Below are positions 594 through 17,582 of a DNA stretch of 19,760 bases, in pieces. Origin of the DNA: a virus (Duplodnaviria > Heunggongvirae > Uroviricota > Caudoviricetes); IMG/VR virus record IMGVR_UViG_3300035701_000012, one strand, 5' to 3'. The notes beneath the pieces are model-generated. The model was not told the origin of the DNA, made no database searches, and saw nothing but the letters and a program-made list of their open reading frames with translations. How positions within the stretch are numbered: the stretch's first letter is position 1; the number at the start of each line of letters is the position of its first letter. A program made the translations under genes and the position numbers.

Positions 594-1916
594 TCAGATT
601 TTTTTATCATTATTGGTAGCGTTGTAGTCAATCTTAGATTGCTTCAGTATATCTGTAAGTGGTTTATGTTCACGCTTGGCTTCCCAATCTTTTTTCTCAA
701 ATCCTGCGATTCGTTCATTTGACATCTTTACGAAATCAGGATTAAGTTCAACGCCAATGAAATTCAGACCCAAATCTTTGGCAACTTTGCAAGTTGTGCC
801 GCTTCCACAAAAAATATCCATGACTATGCCCGGAATAAATTCTTCTCCACAACCACAATCAGTATATCCAATTTCTTTTTTCTTAGTTTCTCTACGATAT
901 GGCGGTGGTCTCATACTACCAATTCTTTGTTCTTCAGTTGAATGAGTTCTTCCTTCAAAGTCGCCTTCGTTTATGACTTCGGTTTCTATTATTTTTTCTC
1001 TTGGTTTTCCACATTTTTTGCAGATGAATCGTGGTGTCCCGGATTTTATCATCGGCAATACGAGTGCTTCAGGGAATACAGCAAAATGCGATTCTGAAAA
1101 AGATTCGGTTGTAACATCCCAAACACATCTTTTGTTTCTGTCTTGATAAGCATCTTCAAATTCTTCTTTTGTCATTTCCTTTCTTCCAATCATAGCATTT
1201 GGTCGGTTGCCTTTGGGCATCTTTCCCCATCTGCCTCCCCATGTATCTTTTCTTTCTTCTCGTTGTTGCTCAAAAAAATACTTGCGGTTTTTTACCATAA
1301 AGAAAATTTTCTCATAATCCACCGTGTAGCGGTCTTTTACGGATGATGGCATCGAATTCCGTTTCCACCAAATAAGTTCATTCCTGAGTATCCATCCACG
1401 ATTCGACATTTCGATTGCGAAACGAGATGGAATTTGGCAAAGAGATTTTGAAGGCAATAAACCTTTGTCATGCCTGTGCGGATTTCTCTCGCTTTTTTCA
1501 AACCATTCAATGTTTCTTTCTTTTCTTTCCCATGATTGCGGACCACCGCAACCACCAAAATATGTGTCGCCAAGATTGACGTAAATCACTCCTGTCTTTT
1601 TGAGAACACGCTTTACTTCATCAAAAATTGAACAAAGATGATAAATATAATCCGCAAAATCTTTTTCGAGACCGAGTTCGCCTTTCCATGCACCACATTT
1701 TGAACAGAAATTATCTTTATTTTCAGTTCCTATATTTTTTTCCCATTCATGTTCGCATTTTGGGTCGCCATCCCAAACCTGCGGATTAGTTTCATAAACC
1801 CGGAGAGACCAGTATGGCGGACTGGTTATCACACAATCAACAAAATTCGATGGCATTTTTTTCAGAACATCTAATGTGTTTCCCTCATGTATCTTGTTTA
1901 TCCATTCTTCGTGCAT
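594..1916 (-). CDS. Orphan beta-class DNA methyltransferase (N6/N4 family, probably m4C)
   Basis: N-terminal catalytic motif IV TSPPYW, C-terminal motif I DIFCGSGTT, NLGDTY and HFAVFP motifs; start moved to ATG 1916 (GAGGTGA RBS, TGATG coupling). Confidence 0.9.
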   Translation of the reverse strand: MHEEWINKIHEGNTLDVLKKMPSNFVDCVITSPPYWSLRVYETNPQVWDGDPKCEHEWEKNIGTENKDNFCSKCGAWKGELGLEKDFADYIYHLCSIFDEVKRVLKKTGVIYVNLGDTYFGGCGGPQSWERKERNIEWFEKSERNPHRHDKGLLPSKSLCQIPSRFAIEMSNRGWILRNELIWWKRNSMPSSVKDRYTVDYEKIFFMVKNRKYFFEQQREERKDTWGGRWGKMPKGNRPNAMIGRKEMTKEEFEDAYQDRNKRCVWDVTTESFSESHFAVFPEALVLPMIKSGTPRFICKKCGKPREKIIETEVINEGDFEGRTHSTEEQRIGSMRPPPYRRETKKKEIGYTDCGCGEEFIPGIVMDIFCGSGTTCKVAKDLGLNFIGVELNPDFVKMSNERIAGFEKKDWEAKREHKPLTDILKQSKIDYNATNNDKKI

Positions 1917-2251
1917 CAAGATGAATCACCTCTGATGAAATCCTTTAGATTTTTACCATTATCAGAACTATTATTTTCTATAAGCGAAAAAATCTTCAAA
2001 AATTCTTCAGTAGGAATATAAACATCAATATCCAAAGTGTCTTTCTGACCATTCCAAAAATCTTTTCCATCAAATCTTAGATGAATCTGAATCTCTGGCG
2101 GACAGTTTTTCTCTATGATTGGCTTCATAGTAAAAATCATGTCCTGATTTTCGGTTGTTTTGAACGCAGATTTATTGTTCATGAATCTTGCTATAGCGTA
2201 TCTTGGTTTCATCCAAATTTCTATGCCTGTTCTTGTGCTTAGTTTTTTCAT
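1916..2251 (-). CDS. Hypothetical protein
   Basis: 111-aa ORF coupled to neighbours by overlapping stop/start; no recognisable motif. Confidence 0.65.
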   Translation of the reverse strand: MKKLSTRTGIEIWMKPRYAIARFMNNKSAFKTTENQDMIFTMKPIIEKNCPPEIQIHLRFDGKDFWNGQKDTLDIDVYIPTEEFLKIFSLIENNSSDNGKNLKDFIRGDSS

Positions 2252-3305: not shown

Positions 3306-3758
3306 TCATTTTGTCGGTTTTTCTTCATAAATTTCTAATCGAATTTGTCGCATTCTGCATTTTTGTGCAAAGGTGAAGTTGTTTACATTGTTTACAGAGT
3401 TTACAATCCTCTTCTTGTAAACTTTGTTTACATCCCTCTTGTAAACTTTGTTTACATTGTTTACAATGTTTACATCCCTCTTGTAAACTTTGTTTACAGA
3501 GTTTACAATATCGTTGTTTACAGAGTTTACAGAGTTTACAACATCCAAATTTTCTGTAAACTCCGCATCTATATTTTGGGTAGGTTGCAAACTTTTTTCA
3601 AATTCTTGGTTTACAATAGTGTTCACTGTCTGTTCACCTTCCGCAGATGAAGCTACCTTTAACAGCATTTTGATGGCATTATTCTGTGTTAAACGATGTT
3701 CCTCAGAGAATTTATCAAATCGGTTTTTCACGTTTACATCGACTCTTATCATTGCCAT
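3306..3758 (-). CDS. Ribbon-helix-helix DNA-binding protein with VN(S/N/K) repeat tract
   Basis: N-terminus MAMIRVDVNVKNRFDKF...TQNNAIKMLL fits RHH beta-alpha-alpha pattern and resembles upstream ORF; start ATG 3758. Confidence 0.6.
   Translation of the reverse strand: MAMIRVDVNVKNRFDKFSEEHRLTQNNAIKMLLKVASSAEGEQTVNTIVNQEFEKSLQPTQNIDAEFTENLDVVNSVNSVNNDIVNSVNKVYKRDVNIVNNVNKVYKRDVNKVYKKRIVNSVNNVNNFTFAQKCRMRQIRLEIYEEKPTK
3381..3561. repeat. GTTTACA/TGTAAAC heptamer array with three 17-bp palindromes
   Basis: 12 GTTTACA copies 3381-3540, mostly 9-bp spaced; TGTAAACTTTGTTTACA at 3416-3432, 3440-3456, 3482-3498; another TGTAAAC at 3555. Confidence 0.9.
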
Positions 3759-3761
3759 CAA

Positions 3762-4046
3762 TCACACCTTCGGTTGCTTCAATATTTCTTTTTCAACAAT
3801 TTCAATAAACGCTGAAAAAGTAGCATGGTCTTTTTGGATTATACCTTTTATTTCAGAAATTTCATTTTCAATTTTTTTAAAACGCATTTCAATAGGAATA
3901 TCTTGGTCATCATCTGAGATTATTCCAATATTTCCTTCCAGAAAGTTCAGAGCTTTTTCTACTGCTTGACTGTGCGATAAATCTTCCAATTCACACATTT
4001 TATCCAATCTCTCTTTCACATCGTCTTCAAGTCTGATACTTGCCAT
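3762..4046 (-). CDS. Ribbon-helix-helix (CopG-like) DNA-binding protein
   Basis: MASIRLEDDVKERLDKMC...SHSQAVEKAL; GAGGTGA RBS places start at ATG 4046 rather than GTG 4055. Confidence 0.7.
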   Translation of the reverse strand: MASIRLEDDVKERLDKMCELEDLSHSQAVEKALNFLEGNIGIISDDDQDIPIEMRFKKIENEISEIKGIIQKDHATFSAFIEIVEKEILKQPKV

Positions 4047-4083
4047 GCGTATCACCTCATATTATTTTATTACATTTCCAACA

Positions 4084-4100
4084 ATATAAAGATACTTTTT
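4084..4100 (-). promoter_or_regulatory. Archaeal BRE+TATA promoter for the RHH operon
   Basis: Minus strand AAAAAGTATCTTTATAT, ~40 bp upstream of ATG 4046. Confidence 0.55.
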
Positions 4101-4226
4101 GTCATTTTTGTTTTTACCCATACGTCATGAATACCAAATGTTTTCATTTTGAATTTATAATGCTGTTATAATCCTACTACATTCTGATTTTTTTGTTCAT
4201 TTTCTTCAAAGTTTTGCTCTATTTTG

Positions 4227-4363
4227 CTTGTCCGACTTGTCCGATTCGTGTTTTACGACAATTTGGACATTTGGGTCAACTTGTCCATCTTGTCCGTTAT
4301 ATATCACCTTAGGGATATAACGGACAAGTGGACAAGACCTCACGACATCCAAAATGTCCAAAT
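4227..4363. repeat. Putative replication origin: imperfect inverted repeat with CTTGTCC iteron-like heptamers
   Basis: CTTGTCC at 4227, 4236, 4280, 4289; GGACAAG at 4322, 4330; arms 4261-4305 and 4314-4363 pair around CCTTAGG; intergenic, directly downstream of primase-helicase. Confidence 0.6.
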
Positions 4364-4385: not shown

Positions 4386-6257
4386 TTATTTTTCTCCTTC
4401 CTCTTCCATTCCATCATAGACATCATCGTCATCTTTTGTAAAACCTGTCAAATCTATATTCCCATATTGAAATTTATATTGTCCTCGCATCTGTTTCAAA
4501 AGCAATCCTTTTGTGCTTAATCGGTTTATTGCTTTTGCAACAACTCGTCTGTCTTTATGACCATCGTTTCTCATGGCATCAACAATTTCTTTCGTTTTGA
4601 TGATTGTATTCGGTTGAATGTTATGAATTAGCCAAGTCTCCATTGCTTTCTCGACCACATCAATGATTGTGACGAGAGTTTCTGTTTTTCCCAAGAATTC
4701 CATGAAGAGTTTTTCATCAATCTCTTCAATCTTTACAGTAAAGCGTTCAGGCAGTTTTGCTGGTCTCATTTTTAATGGCTTGATTGTCATCGTAAGGTCT
4801 TCGTTTTTCTGAACCATCAAGACGACAGATGCTATCCCGGTAATATCGCCAGTCCCTCTGATTTCAGATATTTCATCGCTTGTGTTTGCAAACTTGGATG
4901 TTGCAGATTTTCTTGTATGTGCAACAACAATCACGCAGCGTTTTTTGGACACAGGCGCAAGAACGGTCTTGTAAATAAAGTTGATGACTTTGGAATCGTT
5001 TTCATCACCGTAATATGTTCTTCGCAAGGTATCAAAGATTACGAGACATGGGTTGATGGTCTCAACCCATTTCATCAGTTCATTTATCATGAACTCATCT
5101 TGAATATCAAAGTTCTCGTTGATGTTGAACATCAATACTCTTTTTTCAGGCAGACCGCCAAGCTTCATCATTCTCTCATATAAAGTTGAGTGGTCATTTT
5201 CTCCGTCAATCAGAATAATCGGTCTGTCATCGGGATTATTCAGTGGCAGTGCATTGAATAGTTTTCTGTTATTTGACAAAGCACTCATCAGCTCTTCGGT
5301 GATGAAAGATTTTCCTGAGCCTGTTGCTCCAGAAATAATGCAGATTCCTTTGGTTGGTAGATAGTGGTCAAGAAGCCATGTCACAGGTTCAGGCACACCA
5401 TATTGCTCGAAATACTTGAACATCTCTTCTGATGGCACCATCGGTTTTTCCTGAGTCATTCTTGATTCGATGAGTTGCTTGGCAAATTCCATTGCTTTGG
5501 AAATCGTCAGCATTTTGTATTGCGGATGTGTCTCGTTCCATTTCCCCACTTTGGCGTTAATCATTATCTCGTTGATTTCTTTCGGCTGAAATCCTTCTAT
5601 AGCGAGAATGTTGCACAATGATTGCTCGGCTTCGCTGCGAGTCTTTCCCGGAAACCAGTTCTGCCAGTTGCCATTGTAGATGTCGGTGAACTTTGGGTCT
5701 TTTCTTTTCAATTCGCCAAGCTTCACGGTCATCGCAAGAAACATCTCGGTATCGTTTTCTTTTACCATGCCCATGCGACTTTTATGCAGAAGTTTCACGT
5801 TGCCAGTTTTAAAATGCGGTTCGTATTCGAGAGCAATGAGGTTATGCTCTGCCTTCTTCGAGATGTCGCCGCCAAAGTATTGGATGATGCTTTTCTTTAT
5901 TTCGGTGACTTGGTTGGGTTCGGTCTCTCGTAATTTTGGGAAGATGATGTCAATATGGAATCCTCTGCTTCCTGTCGAGAACGATAGATAATTGACAGGA
6001 ATGCTGTCGAGTTCTTCAGTAATTGAATCAATCTTAGATGGGTCTTCAATATCCAGTATAATCTCTTCCTTGAAGACAGAACGCAGGTTTGATTCTTCCA
6101 AATCAATATCAGAACATTCCGAGAATTTTTTCCATCCAGACCATCCCGGAATCATCTTCTTGTTTTCTGGTTCGTATCCCTTTGCGTAAAAAAGGTCGTA
6201 ATCACCGAATTGATTGTAAAGACTTTTTAGGTATTCTGTTTTATCGGTCATAGGCAT
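4386..6257 (-). CDS. Primase-helicase replication protein (AEP prim-pol + helical PriCT-like + RepA/SF4-type AAA_25 helicase + C-terminal wHTH)
   Basis: AEP motifs ILDIED, STGSRGFH, PHFKTG; TRSEAEQSL helical domain; Walker A GATGSGKS, IDGEN, Walker B VIFDTL, AHTRK, IRGTG. Confidence 0.85.
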   Translation of the reverse strand: MPMTDKTEYLKSLYNQFGDYDLFYAKGYEPENKKMIPGWSGWKKFSECSDIDLEESNLRSVFKEEIILDIEDPSKIDSITEELDSIPVNYLSFSTGSRGFHIDIIFPKLRETEPNQVTEIKKSIIQYFGGDISKKAEHNLIALEYEPHFKTGNVKLLHKSRMGMVKENDTEMFLAMTVKLGELKRKDPKFTDIYNGNWQNWFPGKTRSEAEQSLCNILAIEGFQPKEINEIMINAKVGKWNETHPQYKMLTISKAMEFAKQLIESRMTQEKPMVPSEEMFKYFEQYGVPEPVTWLLDHYLPTKGICIISGATGSGKSFITEELMSALSNNRKLFNALPLNNPDDRPIILIDGENDHSTLYERMMKLGGLPEKRVLMFNINENFDIQDEFMINELMKWVETINPCLVIFDTLRRTYYGDENDSKVINFIYKTVLAPVSKKRCVIVVAHTRKSATSKFANTSDEISEIRGTGDITGIASVVLMVQKNEDLTMTIKPLKMRPAKLPERFTVKIEEIDEKLFMEFLGKTETLVTIIDVVEKAMETWLIHNIQPNTIIKTKEIVDAMRNDGHKDRRVVAKAINRLSTKGLLLKQMRGQYKFQYGNIDLTGFTKDDDDVYDGMEEEGEK

Positions 6258-6267
6258 CTCTCCCCAT

Positions 6268-6295
6268 ATAAAACAAAAAAGAAAAAAAACAAAAT
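6268..6295 (-). terminator. Possible oligo-T archaeal terminator
   Basis: Minus strand reads as near-continuous T tracts just after the stop of the SSB-like gene. Confidence 0.35.
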
Positions 6296-6312
6296 GGTCA
6301 TGTTTTGGTTTT

Positions 6313-6636
6313 TTATTCGAGCTTTCTTGCTACTCTAAGACAGGCGACCTCGCTTCCCTGATACATCGTGAAGCTTCTGATGATGTCAAAGGATTTTCCT
6401 ACCCAAGTTTCGTAGTTTGCTCCGAACTGCTCTGAAAGCCGCTGTGCATTGGTCTTGTTCAAAGCGAAAGACTTTCCGTTGTCGAGTTCAAGGACAAGTT
6501 TTATCTTATCGCTTTGACCTATCTTGTCGGGTTTCACAGATTTTATGGTTACTCGGAGTGTTTTACCTTCTTGGACATCTTTGGTTGTCAGGAGAGAACG
6601 ACTGTCTCCGTAAATCTCGTCTACATTCGGGGTCAT
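6313..6636 (-). CDS. Putative viral single-stranded DNA-binding protein (OB-like)
   Basis: VTIKSV...KLVL...FALNKTN...FG...WVGK pattern of a widespread phage family next to replication genes; GGAGG RBS favours ATG 6636 over 6651. Confidence 0.55.
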   Translation of the reverse strand: MTPNVDEIYGDSRSLLTTKDVQEGKTLRVTIKSVKPDKIGQSDKIKLVLELDNGKSFALNKTNAQRLSEQFGANYETWVGKSFDIIRSFTMYQGSEVACLRVARKLE

Positions 6637-6638
6637 AT

Positions 6639-6743
6639 CTAATTCCTCCATCTTTTTTTTCCACAGGTTACGCAGAAATAGTATGTCTCATTGTAGCACT
6701 GCTTCCATTTATGTTTGTTGCTACTATTCGGGCATCTGTCCAT
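6639..6743 (-). CDS. 34-aa Zn-finger microprotein (not in ORF track)
   Basis: MDRCPNSSNKHKWKQCYNETYYFCVTCGKKRWRN; GGTGA RBS 5 nt upstream; fills gap exactly. Confidence 0.6.
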   Translation of the reverse strand: MDRCPNSSNKHKWKQCYNETYYFCVTCGKKRWRN

Positions 6744-6960
6744 TCTGGTCACCTGTTTCAGCATGAATTTTTGTTTTTGATTGAATCCAGCAATTGTCTT
6801 CATCAAATACCAGTAATCTTTTTTTTTCCATCAATACAACCAATCGGAAGGTCTTCTCCAATGGTAGTTTAATCCATTCAGCGATGGAACTCAGTGGTAT
6901 AGGTGAATCAATCTTCTCATTGTTCACATAATCCAAAACTTTTTTCTCAAATCGTTCCAT
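6724..6960 (-). CDS. Winged-helix DNA-binding protein
   Basis: PIPLSSIAEWIKLPLEKTFRLVVLMEKKRLL fits wHTH pattern; GGTG RBS. Confidence 0.6.
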   Translation of the reverse strand: MERFEKKVLDYVNNEKIDSPIPLSSIAEWIKLPLEKTFRLVVLMEKKRLLVFDEDNCWIQSKTKIHAETGDQNGQMPE

Positions 6961-6971
6961 AGGAACACCAT

Positions 6972-7145
6972 TTACTCTTTTTCAATAATAATTTTTTTCT
7001 TACCGTCTTCTTCCAAAGCGGTTGCCAAAAATTCATCTCCTACCTTCCAACCAAGTTCAGAAAAAAGCGTTGTCAGAATCACAGCTTGTGATGAACCCAA
7101 ATCTATAATTTTTTTCCTCTCTTTGAGATATATTGTGTTATTCAT
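6972..7145 (-). CDS. AbrB/MazE/SpoVT-type transcription regulator
   Basis: RKKIIDLGSSQAVIL...ELGWKVGDEF swapped-hairpin signature; start probably ATG 7145 (TTTATA ~29 bp upstream, leaderless). Confidence 0.75.
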   Translation of the reverse strand: MNNTIYLKERKKIIDLGSSQAVILTTLFSELGWKVGDEFLATALEEDGKKKIIIEKE

Positions 7146-7275
7146 GGGTGTAATTTGACTTAATTCAGTATAAATAGAATTATATACTCGATAGGTCACT
7201 TCAAAAAAGCGTTATGACTCATAGGTAAAACGCACAATTTTTACGTTTAAATATCGGAAAATTCATATATGTAGA
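7146..7275. promoter_or_regulatory. Divergent promoter region between replication and membrane arms
   Basis: TTTAAATA at 7246-7253 (30 bp before ATG 7276); palindromes TATGACTCATA 7213-7223 and GTAAAA-N8-TTTTAC 7225-7244. Confidence 0.5.
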
Positions 7276-7452
7276 ATGCAGTGCAAACAGTGTCCTGACG
7301 TGGATGCAGTAGCGATTGTCCTTCTAATTGACGAGTTTCCTGACAGTGTTTATAATCGGTCTGGAAGATGTCAACTACCTCTATGCCAAGAATGTTTTGA
7401 TGAAACCAAACGCAGGAAAATATATCTTGGTCATAAATCTATAACTACCTAA
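7276..7452 (+). CDS. 58-aa Zn-finger protein (not in ORF track)
   Basis: MQCKQC...LPLCQECF; TATA at leaderless spacing. Confidence 0.6.
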   Translation: MQCKQCPDVDAVAIVLLIDEFPDSVYNRSGRCQLPLCQECFDETKRRKIYLGHKSITT

Positions 7453-7465
7453 AGGTAAGACTATC

Positions 7466-7481
7466 AAAAAAACCTTTATAT
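7466..7481 (+). promoter_or_regulatory. Archaeal BRE+TATA promoter for membrane-protein operon
   Basis: AAAAAAACCTTTATAT, ~50 bp upstream of ATG 7529. Confidence 0.55.
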
Positions 7482-7528
7482 TTCACCACGACCATAGATT
7501 TTATGTAACATAGTGATTTGGTGGTTTC

Positions 7529-7681
7529 ATGCCAATTGAGGTTTACGAAGTCAAAACAAGAGTAGGAAAAACAAAACGTGCTTGGTGTAGTCATTGTAAA
7601 CATGATTGGCAGATAAAACCATATCTGATTAAGTTAGGTCGCAAACCCAAACAGTGTCCTTCGTGCCACATGAATGATTGA
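7529..7681 (+). CDS. 50-aa Zn-ribbon protein (not in ORF track)
   Basis: CSHCKHDW...PKQCPSC; GGTGG RBS. Confidence 0.7.
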   Translation: MPIEVYEVKTRVGKTKRAWCSHCKHDWQIKPYLIKLGRKPKQCPSCHMND

Positions 7682-7691
7682 TGGTGAAAAA

Positions 7692-8051
7692 ATGTCAAGC
7701 AAATGGTCTCAAAAAATAATCGGTGCAATCTCAATATTTATTGGAACAATGATTGTCGGACTTTGGTCAATTGCTAATCTTGGTGTGGCTTATATTTCAG
7801 GTATAGGATATTTTCTGATATCCGCAATAATTTTTGCCGCAGTTACTTTTTTCATACTTCCAGAGAAAAAAGATTTCAAAAAAAACGCAATGTTTCTTTT
7901 CATCTACGGTTTGATTGGTGGAATAATTTACAATATGGTTATTTACGGCTCGTTGAGTAATCTGTTCGGTTTGTATTTAATCGAAGGTGGAGTAGAAGTC
8001 GGAGTATTTTCAGTCATAGTTTATGCCCTCATCAATTATTTCAAAGGTTAG
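7692..8051 (+). CDS. Four-TM membrane protein
   Basis: Four hydrophobic Gly/Ile-rich segments; GGTGA RBS gives start 7692. Confidence 0.75.
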   Translation: MSSKWSQKIIGAISIFIGTMIVGLWSIANLGVAYISGIGYFLISAIIFAAVTFFILPEKKDFKKNAMFLFIYGLIGGIIYNMVIYGSLSNLFGLYLIEGGVEVGVFSVIVYALINYFKG

Positions 8052-8064
8052 GTGGTGAAACATC

Positions 8065-8103
8065 ATGCCAAAGAAAAAGAAAAGAGCAGCAACAACTTAT
8101 TAA
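8065..8103 (+). CDS. 12-aa basic micropeptide MPKKKKRAATTY
   Basis: Strong GGTGGTGA RBS 6 nt upstream; too short to be sure. Confidence 0.3.
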   Translation: MPKKKKRAATTY

Positions 8104-8120
8104 TGTAGCATAATAAATCA

Positions 8121-8184
8121 GGCATTGCTTCCGAGTGGTCTGTTTTGGTCAGCATAGGCGGAGTGTAAGATTCTCCGCTATGCT
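8121..8184 (+). ncRNA. Degenerate tRNA-like or stable hairpin element
   Basis: CCGAGTGGTC D-loop-like motif; hairpin AGCATA(G)GCGGAG/CTCCGCTATGCT 8151-8184; not a canonical cloverleaf. Confidence 0.25.
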
Positions 8185-8199
8185 TTAGAGGTAATCGGT

Positions 8200-8397
8200 A
8201 TCAAGAACAAAGGAAAAATTTTGATTGTAATCATCATACTTTTAATCATCAGTTTTTTTGTTTATGAGAATTATTTTGATTGTCCGAAGGTTTGCTCTTT
8301 CACCGGTGTGTCAACGAGCAACAATACATATATGACGGTTGGAGCATGTCGTTGTAATTTGGCGGAATCTCCACCAATGCCATATTTAGGAGGATAA
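8200..8397 (+). CDS. 65-aa signal-anchored Cys-containing protein with ATC in the start position (start-loss or non-canonical start)
   Basis: GAGGT RBS 7 nt before ATC-AAG-AAC-AAA-GGA; (I)KNKGKILIVIIILLII...CPKVC...CRC; no in-frame ATG/GTG/TTG upstream. Confidence 0.45.
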   Translation: MKNKGKILIVIIILLIISFFVYENYFDCPKVCSFTGVSTSNNTYMTVGACRCNLAESPPMPYLGG

Positions 8398-8399
8398 AA

Positions 8400-8555
8400 A
8401 TGACATACACAATAACATTCCCAAATACTACAGATGTAACAAACGCAGGTAATACTCAAATGACAACAGCAGGTCAAACATTTCCATTTTGGCTTTTTGG
8501 AATAGGAATATTGGTATTGCTTTTGATTGCGGTAATAGTGATAAAGAGGAAATAA
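8400..8555 (+). CDS. 51-aa single-TM membrane microprotein (not in ORF track)
   Basis: Thr/Asn-rich N-terminus with NTT sequon, TM FWLFGIGILVLLLIAVIVI, KRK tail; GGAGG RBS. Confidence 0.7.
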   Translation: MTYTITFPNTTDVTNAGNTQMTTAGQTFPFWLFGIGILVLLLIAVIVIKRK

Positions 8556-8557
8556 AC

Positions 8558-8797
8558 ATGGTCAAAAAAAACATGATGATTATTTATGTGATTATTGTTT
8601 TGTTAGCAATTTTGTTAGCATTTGTTTATGTGATGGGTGGAACAAAAAGTGTCTCTCAACAAGTTATGCCTTCGGGAGAGCAATGCACAACATACGCACA
8701 ATGCAGTCAGATTTTGCAACAGCAAGGATATACACAAGACCAAATCAATTCGATTCTAACTGTTTGTGATAATAATGGGTGTAAGTTGTTGACATGA
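8558..8797 (+). CDS. Signal-anchored protein with four Cys
   Basis: MVKKN + TM + CTTYAQC...CDNNGC; GAGGA RBS gives start 8558. Confidence 0.7.
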   Translation: MVKKNMMIIYVIIVLLAILLAFVYVMGGTKSVSQQVMPSGEQCTTYAQCSQILQQQGYTQDQINSILTVCDNNGCKLLT

Positions 8798-8807
8798 GGT
8801 GTCGGAT

Positions 8808-10481
8808 TTGAAAAAAAACATAATATTATTTTCCGTTGTAATTTTGCTGATGGTCAGCTTGGCTTTTGCTGATGGATTTTTTGTTCTCTCGGCAGGTCAA
8901 GTAGATTACAGGTCTAACGACCCACAACTCGGTGGCAAGTGGTGGTCAATAACAGTGAGCCAAAATGGTGCAGGAAATTATATTGTTGGAACTTTTACAT
9001 CTGACCAACTGACTGATTCGACAGATGCAGTGAAAGCTCAGTATCCTTTAACTTTAACAGCAAGTATCTCGAATGAAAAGGTAACTTGGGATATTCAAAA
9101 ACAATCAGGTCAGTATGTTGCTGATTTGGAAGTTGAAAGGCAGGATTGTGGTTTTCCATATCTTTGTGATTGGGATAACCGTGGAAAAAATTGTGCAAAT
9201 AAACACGCAAGTGATTCAAACTATCTAAAATATCTTTGGGTTAAAAGAACAGGATTAACTGCTTATTGTGTTTGGTGGACTAATGCAAGACCGCATGGCG
9301 AGATTTCTCCTTATAGTCAAAACAGTTTCACAAGCACTTTATCTGGGACTGTCAGTGGGCAAACTGTAACTGGAACAGTAAGTAATACAGGCACAACAAG
9401 TGTTTGGCTTGGTGACAAGATTCAGGCAACGTGGACAGGAAGTTTGGTTTCAGGATTCAATGTTTATTTCCCTTCCGATAAGGTTTTCACTTGGATTCCC
9501 GGAAGTGGTTGGTTAGTTACAGGAAGAACTGAATGGAGTAATTATTACACACAATATCAGTCATCATTTGAAAATTGCATGGCTGCCGAAGGTGCTAAAA
9601 CTTATGAGCAATGTATTTCTGATTATGAAACTGCAAAGAATGGTGCATTGACTACAAAAACGATAACTATTCAGGATGCTTCATCGCCAACAATAAGTGG
9701 AACGGTTGATTTAGGAAAATTTGCTGTCAGTCTTTCAAAACCTGTGACGTTTCCTGTTCTTAATTTGAAAATCAACGCACTTTGGATTGGTGTTGTTCAG
9801 CTCGTAGGCAAACCTCAAATAAATGGATTTGGCAGTCAATCAGAATTCAGAACAGGTGATACATTGAATGAACAGGTCATTGTTCAAAACATTGGTGCTT
9901 ACACAGGAACATTCGATGTCTATGCGACCTGCACTTCACCGTTGAGTTCTGCTGATAGAGAAAGAGTAACTTTGACAGCAGGTCAGCAAGGTTCTGTTTA
10001 TATCGCAATAACAGGTAGCACAACGAGAGATACTACTGCTTCATGCATATTCACTGCGGTTGATGTGAATCAGCCGAGTAATATTGCAACAAAATCTAAG
10101 ACCTACACTATAAAAACAATAATCGTTTGCACGGCAGGTGCAACGAATTGCAACGGCAATCAAGTTCAACAGTGTGAAGCGGATGGTTCAAGATTCACGA
10201 CAATAAGGAATTGTGATTATGGTTGTGAAGTTGTTGGCACAACTGCTCAGTGCATTGTTCCATCAACCTGCATCAAAGCTTCTGATTGTGATGACAAGAA
10301 TTCATGCACCACTGATACCTGTGAAACGAATTTAATAGGTCAGAAGTCCTGCAAGAACGAAAAGATTCCCGGATGCGGTGGATTTCCCGATTGGATTTTC
10401 TATGTTATCGGTGCTGTAGTTATTATTGCTATATCTATGGTGTTAGTTTTCACGAAACCGAAAACAAAGAGGCGGAGATAA
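8808..10481 (+). CDS. fsx1: Fusexin Fsx1-like (HAP2/class II) membrane fusion protein
   Basis: Signal peptide (TTG start, GAGGTG RBS), beta-rich ectodomain, LGDKIQATWTGSL, GWLV, FPVLNLKINA..IGV...GKPQI linker, Ig-like domain III (VQNIG..GTF....C..AG..C.F), Cys-bonded domain IV-like unit, C-terminal TM with basic tail; matches recalled Fsx1/HAP2 patterns, no search run. Confidence 0.75.
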   Translation: MKKNIILFSVVILLMVSLAFADGFFVLSAGQVDYRSNDPQLGGKWWSITVSQNGAGNYIVGTFTSDQLTDSTDAVKAQYPLTLTASISNEKVTWDIQKQSGQYVADLEVERQDCGFPYLCDWDNRGKNCANKHASDSNYLKYLWVKRTGLTAYCVWWTNARPHGEISPYSQNSFTSTLSGTVSGQTVTGTVSNTGTTSVWLGDKIQATWTGSLVSGFNVYFPSDKVFTWIPGSGWLVTGRTEWSNYYTQYQSSFENCMAAEGAKTYEQCISDYETAKNGALTTKTITIQDASSPTISGTVDLGKFAVSLSKPVTFPVLNLKINALWIGVVQLVGKPQINGFGSQSEFRTGDTLNEQVIVQNIGAYTGTFDVYATCTSPLSSADRERVTLTAGQQGSVYIAITGSTTRDTTASCIFTAVDVNQPSNIATKSKTYTIKTIIVCTAGATNCNGNQVQQCEADGSRFTTIRNCDYGCEVVGTTAQCIVPSTCIKASDCDDKNSCTTDTCETNLIGQKSCKNEKIPGCGGFPDWIFYVIGAVVIIAISMVLVFTKPKTKRRR

Positions 10482-10482
10482 T

Positions 10483-10764
10483 ATGCCAAAAAAAATTGAA
10501 TGGGGAGGAGTATTTGAAACGAGGTCTGGAGAAACAGTCGAGATTCCGTCATACATGGCTGTGATAAACAAGAATACAATCAAAGTGCGAACATCAGATT
10601 TTCGTGGAAGTCATGTTACCACAATAAAGAGAACTGATGTATATCGGGGAAGTATGGGTTCTGGATGGGCAGAAATTGGTGGCATTGGTGGTGACTGGAG
10701 AATGATTCAGAACCTTTCCGAAGAACTCGCTTATATTTTTTCAAAATTGAAGGAGATAAAATAG
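10483..10764 (+). CDS. Hypothetical soluble beta-rich protein
   Basis: 93-aa ORF 1 bp after fusexin stop. Confidence 0.65.
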   Translation: MPKKIEWGGVFETRSGETVEIPSYMAVINKNTIKVRTSDFRGSHVTTIKRTDVYRGSMGSGWAEIGGIGGDWRMIQNLSEELAYIFSKLKEIK

Positions 10765-11055
10765 ATGTCCAGAAAAAAATTATCTAAAAAGATTATAGCT
10801 GAAAAAAATCTACTCATCGCTTTCGTTGTTATAGTATTCATTATAGCTTTATCCACATATAGAGCACCGCAACCAGAACAACCAAAAAATAATTGCGCCA
10901 TTGGTGCTATATATTCGGATATAAATTCATGTTATTGCCCGACAGATGTTATGGAATTCGGTCATCCAGCTGCTGAATGGAGAGAAATTATTGCCTGTAA
11001 TCCTGCTGGTAATGAAACTTGTGTTCCGTTATGGAGATGTTTGTATTTAACGTAG
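10765..11055 (+). CDS. Signal-anchored Cys-rich protein
   Basis: Basic N-terminus, one TM, six Cys in C-terminal ectodomain. Confidence 0.7.
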   Translation: MSRKKLSKKIIAEKNLLIAFVVIVFIIALSTYRAPQPEQPKNNCAIGAIYSDINSCYCPTDVMEFGHPAAEWREIIACNPAGNETCVPLWRCLYLT

Positions 11056-11066
11056 GTGAAAAAATA

Positions 11067-11495
11067 ATGCCAGAAAAAAAACCAAAATCATCGTTTCCAT
11101 CGTTCCATGTAACGCTTACTCCACTTACTATAATTTTGTTAATTTTGGGTATCATATTTTCTATTGGTGGAATAATAGTAGCTATCTCGAATATTTTTCT
11201 GTTCGCTTCTGTGGTTTTGTTGACCGCTTTTGTTTATAGGGTAGGAGAAATTTCGATTAAAACAATAATTGTTGTTGGAATAATGGCAGGATTGATAGCT
11301 TGGATAATAAATTTAATTGTTTTGTTATCTGGAGCTTCTTGGTGGATTGGTCTGCCTTTGGTTGGTGCATTTTTCGCTGGAACTTTAGCAGTAGCTTCTA
11401 TAATCTTGTTTTTAATCGCAGATATATCCGCAGGAGTAATACTCAGTGGTGTTATAGGCGGTTTGATTTATCTTTATAACAGAATGAGGAAATAA
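11067..11495 (+). CDS. Multi-pass (4-5 TM) membrane protein
   Basis: Almost entirely hydrophobic; AGGTGA RBS gives ATG 11067. Confidence 0.75.
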   Translation: MPEKKPKSSFPSFHVTLTPLTIILLILGIIFSIGGIIVAISNIFLFASVVLLTAFVYRVGEISIKTIIVVGIMAGLIAWIINLIVLLSGASWWIGLPLVGAFFAGTLAVASIILFLIADISAGVILSGVIGGLIYLYNRMRK

Positions 11496-11496
11496 T

Positions 11497-12594
11497 ATGT
11501 CTAAAAAAATGACAAAACAAAATAAGAATCTTTTAGTGGGAATCGGTCTCGCAGCTATAGTCATAATAGCATTGCTTGTTATTTCAGGTAATTACAAATA
11601 TTCGATTTATCCTGAGGCAACAACGTTAGGAGTAGGTCAGCAAATTCGTTTGAGATATATTTGTGATTTGGCTTGTCAAAATTCAGGCGGTAAATTGGGA
11701 GATGCTGTTACATGGACTTATAAATATTCAACTGATTCGGCTGAAAGTCCGTTATCTTCAGGGACTTTGACTTGTTGTTTGACAGGTGGTCTTGTAGATA
11801 CTCAGTATATATCTCCACTTCGTCAGGGAACTCTCTATGTTTATGCAAAAGTAAAAACGTCTACTGGTAATCTTGTTTCAGAATCAACAACTTTGACTGT
11901 CAGTGCTTCATGCACGAATGATTGTTCATCTGGTCAGACAAAATGTATAAGCACTCATAGAAATAATTGTCAGTTACAAGGCACTTGTTACAAATGGGTT
12001 GATGTAGGAATAGATTCAACTTGTTATAGTTGCCCTGTTTGTCCTTCTCCGGGAAGTTGGTCTTCATGTTCAAACGGAGTGCAAACAAGAACAGATTATA
12101 TGTGTGGTGTAGCAACAAATTATCAATGCAGTTCATTTACTGTAACTCAAGCGTGTGTAAGTCCTTGCCTAAGTGAATGCTGTGATGCCGGAAGCGGTTT
12201 TCAGCCAACATTTTGTCCGAGTGGATATGGATGTAGTGGTGGAATCTGCAAAGCAAATTGTGTTCCAAATAATGTTTGTCAGTCTTGGGGAATTTGTCAG
12301 TCGGGAATTCAATCAAGAATTTGTGATGATGGATGTGGAAGAACAATAACAGAGCAACAAGGATGCACAACTCCTGAAGTTCCTGTATGCACACAACCGC
12401 AAACAACTTGTGAAAATTGGGGTCAATGCCAAAATGGTTTGCAATATAGAAGCTGTGCAGACCCATGTGGTTTAGTTGCTGCTCATGTTGAATCCCAGAG
12501 TTGTAATAGCGATATTTTCTTGATTGTCGTTTTAGCCGGTTTGGCTGTAATAGTAATTTTTGGTGTAGCGATTTTCATGAGGATGAGAAAATGA
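11497..12594 (+). CDS. Cys-rich surface protein/adhesin with thrombospondin-like WxxCxxGxQxR repeats
   Basis: N-terminal hydrophobic segment, Ig-like beta region, >30 Cys, repeats WSSCSNGVQTR, WGICQSGIQSRIC, WGQCQNGLQYRSC, C-terminal TM. Confidence 0.7.
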   Translation: MSKKMTKQNKNLLVGIGLAAIVIIALLVISGNYKYSIYPEATTLGVGQQIRLRYICDLACQNSGGKLGDAVTWTYKYSTDSAESPLSSGTLTCCLTGGLVDTQYISPLRQGTLYVYAKVKTSTGNLVSESTTLTVSASCTNDCSSGQTKCISTHRNNCQLQGTCYKWVDVGIDSTCYSCPVCPSPGSWSSCSNGVQTRTDYMCGVATNYQCSSFTVTQACVSPCLSECCDAGSGFQPTFCPSGYGCSGGICKANCVPNNVCQSWGICQSGIQSRICDDGCGRTITEQQGCTTPEVPVCTQPQTTCENWGQCQNGLQYRSCADPCGLVAAHVESQSCNSDIFLIVVLAGLAVIVIFGVAIFMRMRK

Positions 12595-12863
12595 AAAAAA
12601 CAAACAAAAGATTTATTTTGGCAATTGCAGTCGGAATTTTAGTGATGCTTTTAGTCATAGGATTCATGGGAAAACTCTTTGAAATATCCGGTGGAGAATT
12701 TACCGTGACAAATAATACTTATGTTCCGACAACGACACAGACTCAAACTTCATTTGTTCCAGCAGAAAGTATATTTGTAGTTTATGCTTTTGTGATTGGA
12801 ATATTCCTAATATTTGGGTATGTGATGTATCGAGAAGCAAGAGGATTGTTTAGAAAGAAGTGA
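12591..12863 (+). CDS. Two-TM membrane protein with Thr-rich loop
   Basis: Two hydrophobic helices flanking TVTNNTYVPTTTQTQTS (NNT sequon). Confidence 0.7.
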   Translation: MKKTNKRFILAIAVGILVMLLVIGFMGKLFEISGGEFTVTNNTYVPTTTQTQTSFVPAESIFVVYAFVIGIFLIFGYVMYREARGLFRKK

Positions 12864-12868
12864 AAAAT

Positions 12869-13204
12869 ATGGTAACAAGAGAACTCAGACCGTATGCAAT
12901 ATTGACAACGAATTCCAATCGTATAGAAGTTCAGGCAAGAAATCTCGAAGATGCCTATAGAAAAGCGAGGCGAGAACTTATTCGTATAAAGAAAGAGGAT
13001 GCAAAATATGGTTACAAAGGTATGACATCAAAAGATGAAAATCTCACAGAAGCATACGAAACTTTTGGCAGAGAAGGAATATCTTTGAGAGGATTCATAG
13101 TTACACCGCAATCAATAAAATTTGCAAGAAAATATAGATTCACAGTAGGTGCGAGAATACCTGCTTTGAATGTTTTGTATGGAAATGTTCAGTTTGGTGG
13201 GTAA
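12869..13204 (+). CDS. Hypothetical basic protein
   Basis: ORF in tight operon; ATG 12869. Confidence 0.6.
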   Translation: MVTRELRPYAILTTNSNRIEVQARNLEDAYRKARRELIRIKKEDAKYGYKGMTSKDENLTEAYETFGREGISLRGFIVTPQSIKFARKYRFTVGARIPALNVLYGNVQFGG

Positions 13205-13209
13205 ATAAT

Positions 13210-13416
13210 ATGGTAACAACATTGCCAATTGTAAAATATAGAGGCAGAGATTATGTAGTTGATTTCAGGCTTGGTGAACTCAGAAATGTGAAAACTGCAA
13301 AACCGATTCGTTTCGTGAATTTGAAAGAAGGAGTGCAAAGTTCAATTAAACGCAAATTGAGAGGATTGCGGTCAAGAACATGGTCTAATGAATATGTTGC
13401 TGGGATTGATGATTGA
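13210..13416 (+). CDS. Hypothetical basic protein
   Basis: 68 aa, GGTGG upstream. Confidence 0.6.
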   Translation: MVTTLPIVKYRGRDYVVDFRLGELRNVKTAKPIRFVNLKEGVQSSIKRKLRGLRSRTWSNEYVAGIDD

Positions 13417-13417
13417 T

Positions 13418-13582
13418 ATGAAAAAAGACAACCAAAATATTGTGATGGGATTGATTATAGCAGGAGTATTTTTCGTAGTTGGAATGGCTTCCATAATCCA
13501 AAAGTCTGAACCATTTGGGATTACAATGATTTTTGCAAGTGGTATTGTTTTAGGAGCAGTTACGAAAGAATATTTCATGTAG
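13418..13582 (+). CDS. Two-TM microprotein
   Basis: MKKDNQNIVMGLIIAG...; start just after previous stop. Confidence 0.6.
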   Translation: MKKDNQNIVMGLIIAGVFFVVGMASIIQKSEPFGITMIFASGIVLGAVTKEYFM

Positions 13583-13653
13583 TAAATCATGCTGACTGAC
13601 AAAGAATTCGCAAGAATTGAATTCTTTTGTCTTGTAAACAAAGGTGATGTCCA

Positions 13654-14031
13654 ATGGCTAAAGACGACATGAAAAAATGGCTTGTCATCGCAGTGTTTGG
13701 CATTGCTGCCGTTGCAGCAATAGGTGGAGCAGTGACCACAGCATTGACAGGTTCCGTTGGCTGGGCAATCGGTGCATTGTTGATTGTTCTCGGACTCGGA
13801 ATTGTAGCTTGGAACATACAGGGTAGAGAAGAAGAACCTTTGATGATGGCGATGATAGTGGTTTTCATTATCGGAGCAACATCTTGGGTCTCTCTGACAG
13901 CAGTTTTTTCAAGTGGAACTGACGTTATCATAACAATGTTAAGGTCGTTCACTGGAAATCTTGCTCTGGCTTTCTTCCTTCCAACTCTGTATTTGGCAAG
14001 TAAGAAAATCTACAATGTCAGTGAAAAGTAA
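13654..14031 (+). CDS. Four-TM membrane protein
   Basis: Ala/Gly-rich hydrophobic helices; AGGTGA RBS. Confidence 0.75.
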   Translation: MAKDDMKKWLVIAVFGIAAVAAIGGAVTTALTGSVGWAIGALLIVLGLGIVAWNIQGREEEPLMMAMIVVFIIGATSWVSLTAVFSSGTDVIITMLRSFTGNLALAFFLPTLYLASKKIYNVSEK

Positions 14032-14048
14032 ACACTAAGACGACAAGG

Positions 14049-14062
14049 AAAAGTTTTTTAAG
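14049..14062 (+). promoter_or_regulatory. Possible BRE+TATA promoter for downstream small-gene cassette
   Basis: AAAAGTTTTTTAAG in a ~150-bp intergenic gap. Confidence 0.35.
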
Positions 14063-14189
14063 AATCCATTATACCCTGAATCATTTTGTTGTTGTGGATT
14101 TGGAGTGGTAACACAACAGAAAAACACAGCGAAATGGTGATGAAATGGTGATGATGGGTAGTGGATTTTATTTAGGAAGGTGAAAAAAA

Positions 14190-14342
14190 ATGAATAATAA
14201 AAACGAAACGAGAATTTGTGAATTGGCGAGACATTATCATCGCCCAATCACTGACATCAAAGGTTTTAACAGACTCTTGATTGAAGAAGGAATCAGACCT
14301 GTAACAAAGAAAAAGTTGTCTAAAATTTTGGGATATATGTAA
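14190..14342 (+). CDS. 50-aa hypothetical protein (not in ORF track)
   Basis: AGGTGA RBS; MNNKNETRICELARHYHRP... Confidence 0.55.
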   Translation: MNNKNETRICELARHYHRPITDIKGFNRLLIEEGIRPVTKKKLSKILGYM

Positions 14343-14358
14343 TGGTGAGTGAGAATTC

Positions 14359-14544
14359 ATGGCAAGAAAAAAGAAAAATAATGTTACATTAATAGCATTG
14401 CTTATCATTGCCGGTATGCTCGGTTTGATATATGGAATGAGTCAAACTACTCTGAGCATGAATGTGGTAAACTTTGTGACAATAATAGCAATAGTTGTTA
14501 TTATCGTAACTGTTTTGACTTGGAACGAAATAAGAAAAGGGTGA
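14359..14544 (+). CDS. Two-TM microprotein
   Basis: MARKKK + two hydrophobic helices; GGTGA RBS. Confidence 0.7.
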   Translation: MARKKKNNVTLIALLIIAGMLGLIYGMSQTTLSMNVVNFVTIIAIVVIIVTVLTWNEIRKG

Positions 14545-17215: not shown

Positions 17216-17299
17216 ATGGCAAGAAAAAGACGAGGAAGAAGTGCAGCAGAGATGAAAGCGATGAGAAAAAAACATAAGCTCGGTGAATATCGTAGGTGA
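17216..17299 (+). CDS. 27-aa basic micropeptide (not in ORF track)
   Basis: MARKRRGRSAAEMKAMRKKHKLGEYRR; GAGGTGA RBS. Confidence 0.55.
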   Translation: MARKRRGRSAAEMKAMRKKHKLGEYRR

Positions 17300-17303
17300 A
17301 AAA

Positions 17304-17582
17304 ATGGTCACAATCGAAGATATGAGACGAATAAATATGGAAAAAGGACAATATTTTTTTAGTCAATCAACTATGAGATTTTTCAAATCGAGAATTGTGA
17401 CCAAAGGTCAACTCATCAAAGACAAGTATTTTATTACAAGCGAAAAGTTCGATGAAGACACGCCCAGATTATTTACCGTGAGAAAATTCAATTCAGCCAC
17501 TGGAAACATAAATACGGTTGGAGAATTTCAGGGATTTAGAACATCAAGTGAAGCAAAAAGATTTGCTATGAATTTGGAGTGA
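17304..17582 (+). CDS. Conserved viral hypothetical protein (FF...TMRFFxSR motif)
   Basis: YFFSQSTMRFFKSRI...YFITSE...R.FTVR...G.I.T..EF motif; AGGTGA RBS. Confidence 0.65.
   Translation: MVTIEDMRRINMEKGQYFFSQSTMRFFKSRIVTKGQLIKDKYFITSEKFDEDTPRLFTVRKFNSATGNINTVGEFQGFRTSSEAKRFAMNLE

Follow-up and report, generated by a model that had tools for sequence, protein, structure and literature searches.

Fusexins connect viral entry, somatic cell fusion and gamete fusion, and which of these arose first is at issue. The archaeal fusexin, Fsx1, has so far been described only from islands integrated in haloarchaeal genomes and from fragmentary contigs of metagenomes. In haloarchaea, fsx1 lies in chromosomal insertions of more than 50 kb that also carry homologues of XerC/D, HerA, VirB4 and TraG; the authors of that work proposed that transfer is conjugation-like and requires cell fusion, and suspected the metagenomic fsx1 contigs of being integrated elements too (PMC9259645). 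Here we analyse a 19,760-bp stretch of DNA with a GC content of about 36% from IMG/VR record IMGVR_UViG_3300035701_000012, which we call the window, and which carries an fsx1 gene beside genes for its own replication. The window makes up about one fifth of a circle of about 95.1 kb. Our favoured reading is that it is the replication-and-fusion core of a circular extrachromosomal element from an uncultured, low-GC sediment archaeon. With about even confidence, we take it to be an fsx1 mobile element in a free, replicating state, plasmid-like in its upkeep and spread by membrane fusion driven by Fsx1.

The element resembles the haloarchaeal integrated elements in its size class (more than 50 kb) and in combining fsx1 with a Xer-type recombinase and a HerA/VirB4-type ATPase (PMC9259645). 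This signature gene set of fsx1 mobile elements is found here, its last two members lying outside the window but on the same circle. Unlike the haloarchaeal elements, however, the present one is a closed circular episome with an archaeo-eukaryotic primase (AEP)-helicase of its own, iterons, and a ribbon-helix-helix (RHH) gene with a heptamer array; the part examined yielded no TraG/VirD4-type protein, and its host is not a haloarchaeon. No description of a fusexin on a prokaryote virus or on a free plasmid was found in the literature searched. Positions below are window coordinates (w), in which 1 is the first letter of the window and negative values or values above 19,760 lie beyond it.

An Fsx1 fusexin on a circular molecule

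The gene at the centre of this analysis is the following.

8799..10481, plus strand: Fsx1-family fusexin (class II fusogen) of 560 aa, with a signal peptide, a 20-Cys ectodomain, one C-terminal transmembrane (TM) helix and a basic tail

This is a genuine Fsx1 fusexin and a relative of the gamete fusogen HAP2, as the earlier note on this DNA had proposed from the letters and open reading frames. Taken alone, the window protein gives a sub-threshold match of 19 bits to Pfam HAP2-GCS1. An exhaustive HMMER search returned 579 representative fusexin relatives, 80 of them with E < 1e-30, and the relatives P0005 and P0204 carry Pfam PF28161 Fsx1. Among the plasmids of PLSDB the fusexin has no match. 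A profile built from 97 relatives matches the crystallised archaeal Fusexin1 (PDB 7P4L) with an E of 5.4e-62; the match spans profile positions 43-491, nearly all of the ectodomain. The same profile matches Arabidopsis HAP2 at E 5e-6. The AlphaFold2 (AF2) model (predicted local distance difference test, pLDDT, 89.9) retrieves 7P4L in Foldseek at E 2e-25 (TMt 0.68-0.70) and HAP2 5OW3 at E 4e-18, followed by bunyaviral Gc, an endogenous retroviral envelope protein and EFF-1. By hydropathy, residues 1-19 and 525-556 are hydrophobic, in line with helices of the model at 2-19 and 531-551. Sequence homology to Fsx1, a predicted class II fold, beta-rich and of three domains, and a type I membrane topology are all found in the one protein. 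The signal peptide is encoded only when translation begins at the GTG of position 8799 or at 8808 (the 557-aa call of JGI contig A, below); a 543-aa call from 8850 leaves most of it out.

With crystallised Fsx1 the protein shares a signal peptide, a Cys-rich C-terminal region of the ectodomain, a membrane anchor and, in the model, the class II fold. However, the two are only about 15% identical in the structural alignment, and the element's fusexin belongs to a low-GC freshwater or sediment element whereas the crystallised one is hypersaline. Its single C-terminal TM helix and short basic tail also set it apart from close relatives such as P0002, P0003 and P0005, which have several C-terminal hydrophobic segments.

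The window's DNA was located in several sediment assemblies by exact-protein look-up. Positions w1-12251 are identical to JGI contig A and w13116-19760 are 99.97% identical to contig B of sample 3300035659, and a Logan assembly covers the same ground with other break points.

JGI 3300035659 contig A: 53,789 bp, w-40,546 to 13,242, with a 127-bp overlap with contig B
JGI 3300035659 contig B: 41,397 bp, w13,116 to 54,512
Logan SRR11719878 contig D: 46,641 bp, w-43,186 to 3,454, ending at the heptamer array
Logan SRR11719878 contig C: 48,079 bp, w3,847 to 51,925

Contigs A and B, less their overlap, total 95,059 bp, and contigs C and D together with the 392-bp gap between them total 95,112 bp. 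The IMG/VR record supplies a third closure. Ten AATCT-N-AGAT boxes and a 33-bp palindrome from its first part recur in L008, the DNA downstream of the window in contig B, at a constant offset of 1148, which places the start of the record at w19536. This implies a record of 95,314 bp with a 225-bp terminal overlap, deduced from the coordinates; the unit is then 95,089 bp long. Contig B passes without a break through the junction of the record's ends. Three assemblies with different ends therefore point to one molecule of about 95.1 kb, circular or circularly permuted. None of the contig gene lists contains a host housekeeping or ribosomal flank, and there is no tRNA gene within the 19,760-bp window.

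Since published fsx1 loci are integrated (PMC9259645) and an intact recombinase is present, one might see here an ordinary integrated element or chromosomal island, as in haloarchaea, and take the circle for an assembly artefact. We regard this as very improbable. Three assemblies with differing break points close at the same 95.06-95.11 kb, an independent contig spans the ends of the record, no host gene stands at any contig end, and the element has a primase-helicase and iterons of its own. Integration in a host chromosome, a trait of the fsx1 integrated mobile elements, is not what we find, as the circle closes without host flanks. The evidence supports a discrete circular molecule rather than a chromosomal island. 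The earlier note, which had named ordinary chromosomal context as a finding that would speak against its proposal, described positions 4386-14544 as a candidate self-replicating system equipped with a fusogen. No such context was seen, and the check for circularity and terminal repeats turned out in favour of the proposal; the 10-kb stretch, for its part, is not a self-contained unit and belongs to the 95-kb element.

Replication and probable maintenance genes

Two gene arms part within the window at 7200-7275, called genes to the left lying on the minus strand and those to the right on the plus strand. The cumulative GC-skew minimum, at 6501-7500, coincides with this divergence. The minus-strand arm is the one that contains the replication genes.

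594..1919, minus strand: N4/N6 DNA methyltransferase of 441 aa (Pfam N6_N4_Mtase E 2e-37; phrog_67 E 5e-53)
3306..3761, minus strand: gene for a 151-aa product, with a heptamer array, candidate partition or iteron site
3762..4055, minus strand: RHH (CopG-like) DNA-binding protein (Pfam RHH_1 E 4.9e-6, over the cut-off)
4227..4363, no strand: iteron cluster and long hairpin, candidate origin or operator
4386..6257, minus strand: AEP primase/helicase fusion of 623 aa, with the primase at residues ~1-250, AAA_25 at 288-451 and a C-terminal winged-helix-like tail
6313..6651, minus strand: 112-aa protein matching only phrog_21613 and phrog_11517, both families with no assigned function, and nameless viral Atlas clusters
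7200..7275, no strand: point of divergence of the arms, from gene strands and the GC-skew minimum

Two small proteins of 75 and 78 aa and several other small proteins complete the arm.

The 623-aa protein is supported as a fusion of an AEP primase and a superfamily 4 (SF4)-like helicase, the former through its modelled structure. Residues 288-451 match the AAA_25 (RepA/DnaB/RecA-type) ATPase domain of Pfam at E 2e-16, and the protein matches primase/helicase families in PHROG. For the N-terminus there is no Pfam Prim-Pol match. Two more distant homologues bear a Prim-Pol domain at the same position, and the AEP call rests on the predicted fold because BLAST finds no similarity between the N-terminus and the Prim-Pol domain of the homologue P0203. 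The N-terminal 270 aa, modelled with six homologues of about 50% identity, reach a pLDDT of 87.9, and the top PDB matches of the model in Foldseek are RepB' (3H20, E 7.5e-5), the CAPP Prim-Pol, the PrimPol of cyanophage S-2L (TMt 0.62) and the pRN1 primase. D69, G99 and H101 are invariant across nine primase-helicase homologues, and E71 is so in the seven closest. Both the catalytic fold and the conserved acidic and histidine motifs of the AEP superfamily are accordingly found in the model and its alignment. A language-model search of the domain in the Atlas, as a separate line of evidence, gave 0.96 to RepB_primase and AEP-TOTE clusters.

The closest parallel for this arrangement is the IncQ plasmid RSF1010. 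Its RepB' primase (3H20) is the best PDB match of the element's N-terminal fold, its RepA helicase (1G8Y) is the best PDB sequence match of the element's helicase family profile, although a marginal one, and in both cases an iteron-type site adjoins a replication gene. These similarities are at the level of fold and superfamily only (E 7.5e-5 and 0.022). Unlike RSF1010, the element joins both activities in one 623-aa protein, and no RepC-like initiator was identified on it.

Just past the stop codon of the 623-aa gene, beside an AT-rich tract at 4060-4220, six CTTGTCC heptamers fall within 110 bp (4227-4336), where 1.9 are expected in the whole window. The hairpin at 4227-4363 folds as DNA at -34 kcal/mol (z = -8.2). 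It is plausible from these letters that the site is an origin or an operator. A second repeat, GTTTACA/TGTAAAC, occurs 20 times in the window against 3.0 expected, and 18 of the copies lie inside the 151-aa gene (3381-3738). The Logan assembly, made with k=31, breaks across this array, its contigs ending at w3454 and w3847. A plausible reading is that the array, downstream of the RHH gene, is a partition (centromere) site or an iteron array that is maintained at the DNA level. We propose that the primase-helicase and the iteron hairpin give the element its own replication, and that the RHH protein and heptamer array probably give it its own maintenance.

The earlier note had described this arm as an AEP primase-SF4 helicase with an origin-like palindrome and a gene resembling that of a single-stranded DNA-binding protein (SSB). 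The first two descriptions agree with what we find: the AAA_25 match and the AEP folds at the head of the Foldseek list for the one, and the hairpin with its six iterons for the other. The third finds no support. The 112-aa protein at 6313-6651 has no Pfam family, no detectable similarity to the OB-fold or to SSB and no PDB sequence match; only PHROGs with no assigned function and nameless viral Atlas clusters match it.

The fusion cluster and its counterparts at other fsx1 loci

On the plus strand the fusexin is embedded in a run of membrane proteins.

7276-7681, plus strand: two Zn-ribbon-like miniproteins (58 and 50 aa) that both contain paired CxxC motifs, the first genes of the arm
7674..8051, plus strand: 125-aa protein with four predicted TM helices (hydropathy scan)
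8221..8797, plus strand: three single-TM miniproteins of 58, 51 and 79 aa, packed directly upstream of fsx1 (hydropathy; gene calls in three assemblies)
10483..11055, plus strand: 93-aa soluble protein and 96-aa signal-anchored protein with 6 Cys (hydropathy)
11031..11495, plus strand: 154-aa multi-TM protein with ~4 TM helices (hydropathy; BLASTP to L015:3703-4137, E 2.6e-13)
11497..12594, plus strand: 365-aa protein with 34 Cys, anchored at both ends and carrying three W-x2-C-x2-G-x-Q-x-R modules, candidate adhesin
12591..14544, plus strand: 90-aa 2-TM, 57-aa 1-TM, 125-aa 4-TM (13654) and 61-aa 2-TM proteins, interleaved with two small basic soluble proteins (hydropathy)

The arm is nearly gap-free through the membrane proteins, the fusexin and the Cys-rich protein, and small basic soluble proteins follow after 14.5 kb. 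The hydropathy scan counts three proteins of about four TM helices (at 7674, 11031 and 13654) and seven miniproteins of one or two. This confirms the composition given in the earlier note, namely a Cys-rich protein, three 4-TM proteins and single- or double-TM miniproteins in one run with the fusexin; the adhesin role is that of a candidate. None of the membrane-cluster proteins (multi-TM proteins, miniproteins, 365-aa protein) belongs to a curated family, and for the 365-aa protein neither Pfam nor NCBIfam gives one. The Zn-ribbon-like miniproteins at the head of the arm may regulate the fusion cluster. In the right arm only one small soluble protein has a confident family match, a 99-aa protein at 17283-17582 (Pfam DUF7447, E 6e-24).

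Several of these genes recur where fsx1 is found elsewhere. The closest fusexin relative on a long contig, L015, is 38% identical to the element's fusexin by phmmer and 35% by BLASTP. Directly after its fsx1 comes a counterpart of the multi-TM protein (E 2.6e-13), and L015 also encodes a relative of the CPBP protease (E 8e-16); proteins of 965 aa and >1450 aa come next. An integrase stands right beside its fsx1 and matches the element's integrase only weakly (E 0.006). On L016, fsx1 has proteins of 993, 548 (Big_13) and 1300 aa (CBM96) on its upstream side and, downstream, a protein of 372 aa that contains 36 Cys, and on L003 a 1392-aa Laminin_G_3 protein is near fsx1. The 365-aa protein gives short Cys-module matches to fsx1 neighbours on L015 and L016 (E 7e-5 and 3e-4). 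With two other fsx1 elements, fsx1 itself is the only gene detectably in common. The recurring set of the fsx1 locus comprises the fusexin, a multi-TM partner, a Cys-rich anchored protein, a CPBP protease, giant fibres and a tyrosine recombinase. The comparison of synteny that the earlier note had in view thus has a positive outcome, in that the multi-TM partner, the protease, the integrase and giant surface proteins all recur.

Some members of this set lie outside the window. To its left the circle carries a Vsr-type endonuclease, a 442-aa FtsK/HerA-superfamily ATPase, a 334-aa secreted beta-rich protein, a CPBP/Rce1-like intramembrane protease and a 2734-aa surface protein. The ATPase, a 196-aa protein, the 334-aa protein and the protease lie directly upstream of the 2734-aa protein (L013:10001-14260, window -6.7k to -11k). 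The CPBP protease recurs near fsx1 on L015 and, weakly, on L002. Relatives of the 2734-aa protein carry Laminin_G_3, MG2 and dockerin domains, and a scan of JGI metagenomes with part of this giant surface protein gave no match. The 334-aa protein was considered as a capsid and dropped, its Atlas model having a pLDDT of 0.47 and its nearest folds being pilin- or Ig-like surface domains.

Beyond the right end of the window lie a 690-aa Cys-rich protein, a MoxR-like ATPase, a DUF2201 von Willebrand factor A (VWA)/metallopeptidase, HNH nucleases, a phosphoesterase, a UbiA-like protein and a XerA-like tyrosine recombinase. The UbiA-like protein, a 179-aa member of the prenyltransferase-like family just upstream of the integrase (L010:3657-4196, about w39.3k-39.9k), is perhaps cargo for lipid modification, or else the remnant of a gene. 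About 5.7-11.6 kb beyond the window's right end is a region of repeats around the MoxR/VWA genes. It begins with a perfect palindrome of 16+1+16 bp, which starts on the last base of a stop codon (L008:7424-7474), and after it come 11 AATCT-N-AGAT sites, clustered around these genes (L008:8716-12973; 15 matches on both strands, 0.75 expected).

Fusion, virion or symbiont bridge

Two genes bear most directly on how the element might move. The XerA-like recombinase, about 20 kb beyond the right end of the window, matches Phage_integrase at E 6e-23 and XerA at E 1.4e-26. The 442-aa ATPase, about 7 kb before the left end, matches Pfam DUF87/HerA at E 1e-8 and Pox_A32 at 26 bits; its best NCBIfam match is CedB (E 3e-9), with weak matches to VirB4/TraC, all far under the curated cut-offs. 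A sequence search of the PDB with it gave nothing informative, and it has no match in deposited phage records. CedB is the HerA/VirB4-like ATPase of the Ced DNA-import system of Sulfolobales, which moves DNA between archaeal cells. The likeness has its bounds: the ATPase scores 36 bits where the family cut-off is 700, it has 442 aa against a 590-position model, and no CedA-like protein was identified in the part of the circle examined.

We searched for virion proteins by comparing 57 proteins, from the ~75% of the element examined, with Pfam, PHROGs or NCBIfam. No capsid, portal, terminase or other virion hallmark family was matched, and the only PHROG matches named terminase are P-loop matches of the two ATPases. 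A coupling ATPase of the TraG/TraD/VirD4 type was likewise not found among the scanned proteins or in the Pfam lists for w-19.5k to +51.9k. The earlier note had reported neither capsid, portal nor terminase, and neither a type IV secretion system ATPase nor an integrase. The first part of that statement agrees with what was found in the ~75% of the element examined, and no head-tail genome of the HK97/terminase kind came to light there; the second part is true of the window only, for the element has both an integrase and an ATPase.

The same note had left the choice between an enveloped virus and a plasmid transmitted by cell fusion. Because an integrase and a VirB4/HerA/CedB-like ATPase accompany the fusexin here, as they do in the integrated fsx1 elements, we favour the cell-fusion plasmid over the enveloped virus. 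We hypothesize that membrane fusion is the means by which the element spreads. Contact with a recipient cell would be made by the giant fibres and the Cys-rich protein, and Fsx1, trimerising in the donor membrane, would merge the two membranes. DNA would then cross the bridge, possibly driven by the HerA/VirB4-like ATPase, and in the recipient the element would replicate as a plasmid or integrate by means of its recombinase.

The main competitor is an enveloped archaeal virus without a capsid, pleomorphic or vesicle-like, in which Fsx1 would be the virion spike that joins envelope and host membrane, the small TM proteins would be parts of the envelope and the P-loop ATPase would have a share in genome loading. 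Among known systems, pleolipoviruses and the vesicle-transmitted Halorubrum plasmid pR1SE come close to this: both are membrane-wrapped, capsid-less DNA with membrane proteins of their own, a P-loop NTPase and a spike that is fusogenic. The element is much larger than their genomes, and to our knowledge 95 kb is several-fold above the genome of any described pleomorphic archaeal virus. The likeness is one of concept, the element being known here from its genes alone, and no sequence relationship of the element to pleolipoviruses or to pR1SE was found. The pleolipovirus fusogen VP5 also differs in fold from the fusexins (PMC9259645).

Several features of the element would nevertheless suit such a virus. 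A dense run of membrane miniproteins surrounds the fusogen, and apart from the ATPase no conjugation-specific protein was found. The MoxR-like AAA ATPase and the DUF2201 VWA/metallopeptidase (L008:10001-12426) have very strong matches to phage families (phrog_1297, E 7e-89, and phrog_1314, E 5e-87), which are by far the strongest matches of the element in virus databases. Most of the clusters that the 112-aa protein and the primase domain resemble are viral, and the molecule assembles as a circle with a terminal overlap. On the other hand, no relative of known archaeal virion proteins was found, and the ATPase is closest to CedB, with weak VirB4/TraC matches, rather than to a packaging ATPase family. 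Pattern scans of IMG/VR returned no relatives of the fusexin or the primase-helicase, and a search of 50,697 deposited records of phages and archaeal viruses gave no match to the fusexin. The giant cell-surface fibres, moreover, seem too large for a vesicle coat. Together these points leave the viral reading with perhaps half the credence that we give to the plasmid.

The fusion-spread plasmid has evidence of its own to answer. Its transfer mechanism is deduced from gene content alone. The stretch from w-19.5k to -43k (~23 kb) lies outside the scan and most small open reading frames have no family, so that a divergent capsid or TraG-like protein could have been overlooked. The scores of the ATPase, far below the curated cut-offs of CedB and VirB4, establish superfamily membership only. 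The MoxR/VWA proteins look viral (PHROG E 1e-87 to 1e-89), and circular assemblies with a terminal overlap are also given by viruses that package by the headful. Finally, the host is possibly a non-halophilic member of the DPANN archaea, an assignment that comes from one relative of the helicase, located in a metagenome-assembled genome of Aenigmatarchaeota.

That relative, together with the low GC (about 36%) and a very large outlay on surface proteins, gives some ground for a different function. The fibres, adhesin and Fsx1 might attach an episymbiotic, DPANN-like carrier to a host archaeon and open a cytoplasmic bridge between the two, the plasmid being the carrier of this cargo. We think this rather unlikely, though more probable than the integrated island. 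The host assignment is weak, fsx1 accompanies mobility genes in every context seen, including those of PMC9259645, and its patchy distribution suits selfish transfer better than a core role in symbiosis.

Fsx1 and its tie to mobile elements are already published. What is new is a complete circular episome, outside haloarchaea, that unites an AEP-primase replicon with the conserved gene set of the fusion cluster. There is a small chance, slightly below that of the viral reading as a whole, that the circle is the genome of an archaeal DNA virus with an envelope but no capsid, or of an infectious plasmid vesicle, and that entry relies on its class II fusogen, the homologue of HAP2. If true, a fusexin would for the first time be known from a DNA virus, and from any virus of a prokaryote, and there would be a living archaeal example for a "virus-first" origin of gamete fusogens. 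As a rare complete genome, the element offers a defined unit for asking how fusogens move DNA between cells, and one suited to distinguishing plasmid transfer by cell fusion from entry by vesicle or virus and from bridging between symbiont and host. With it, fsx1 elements now reach the low-GC archaea of non-saline sediments.

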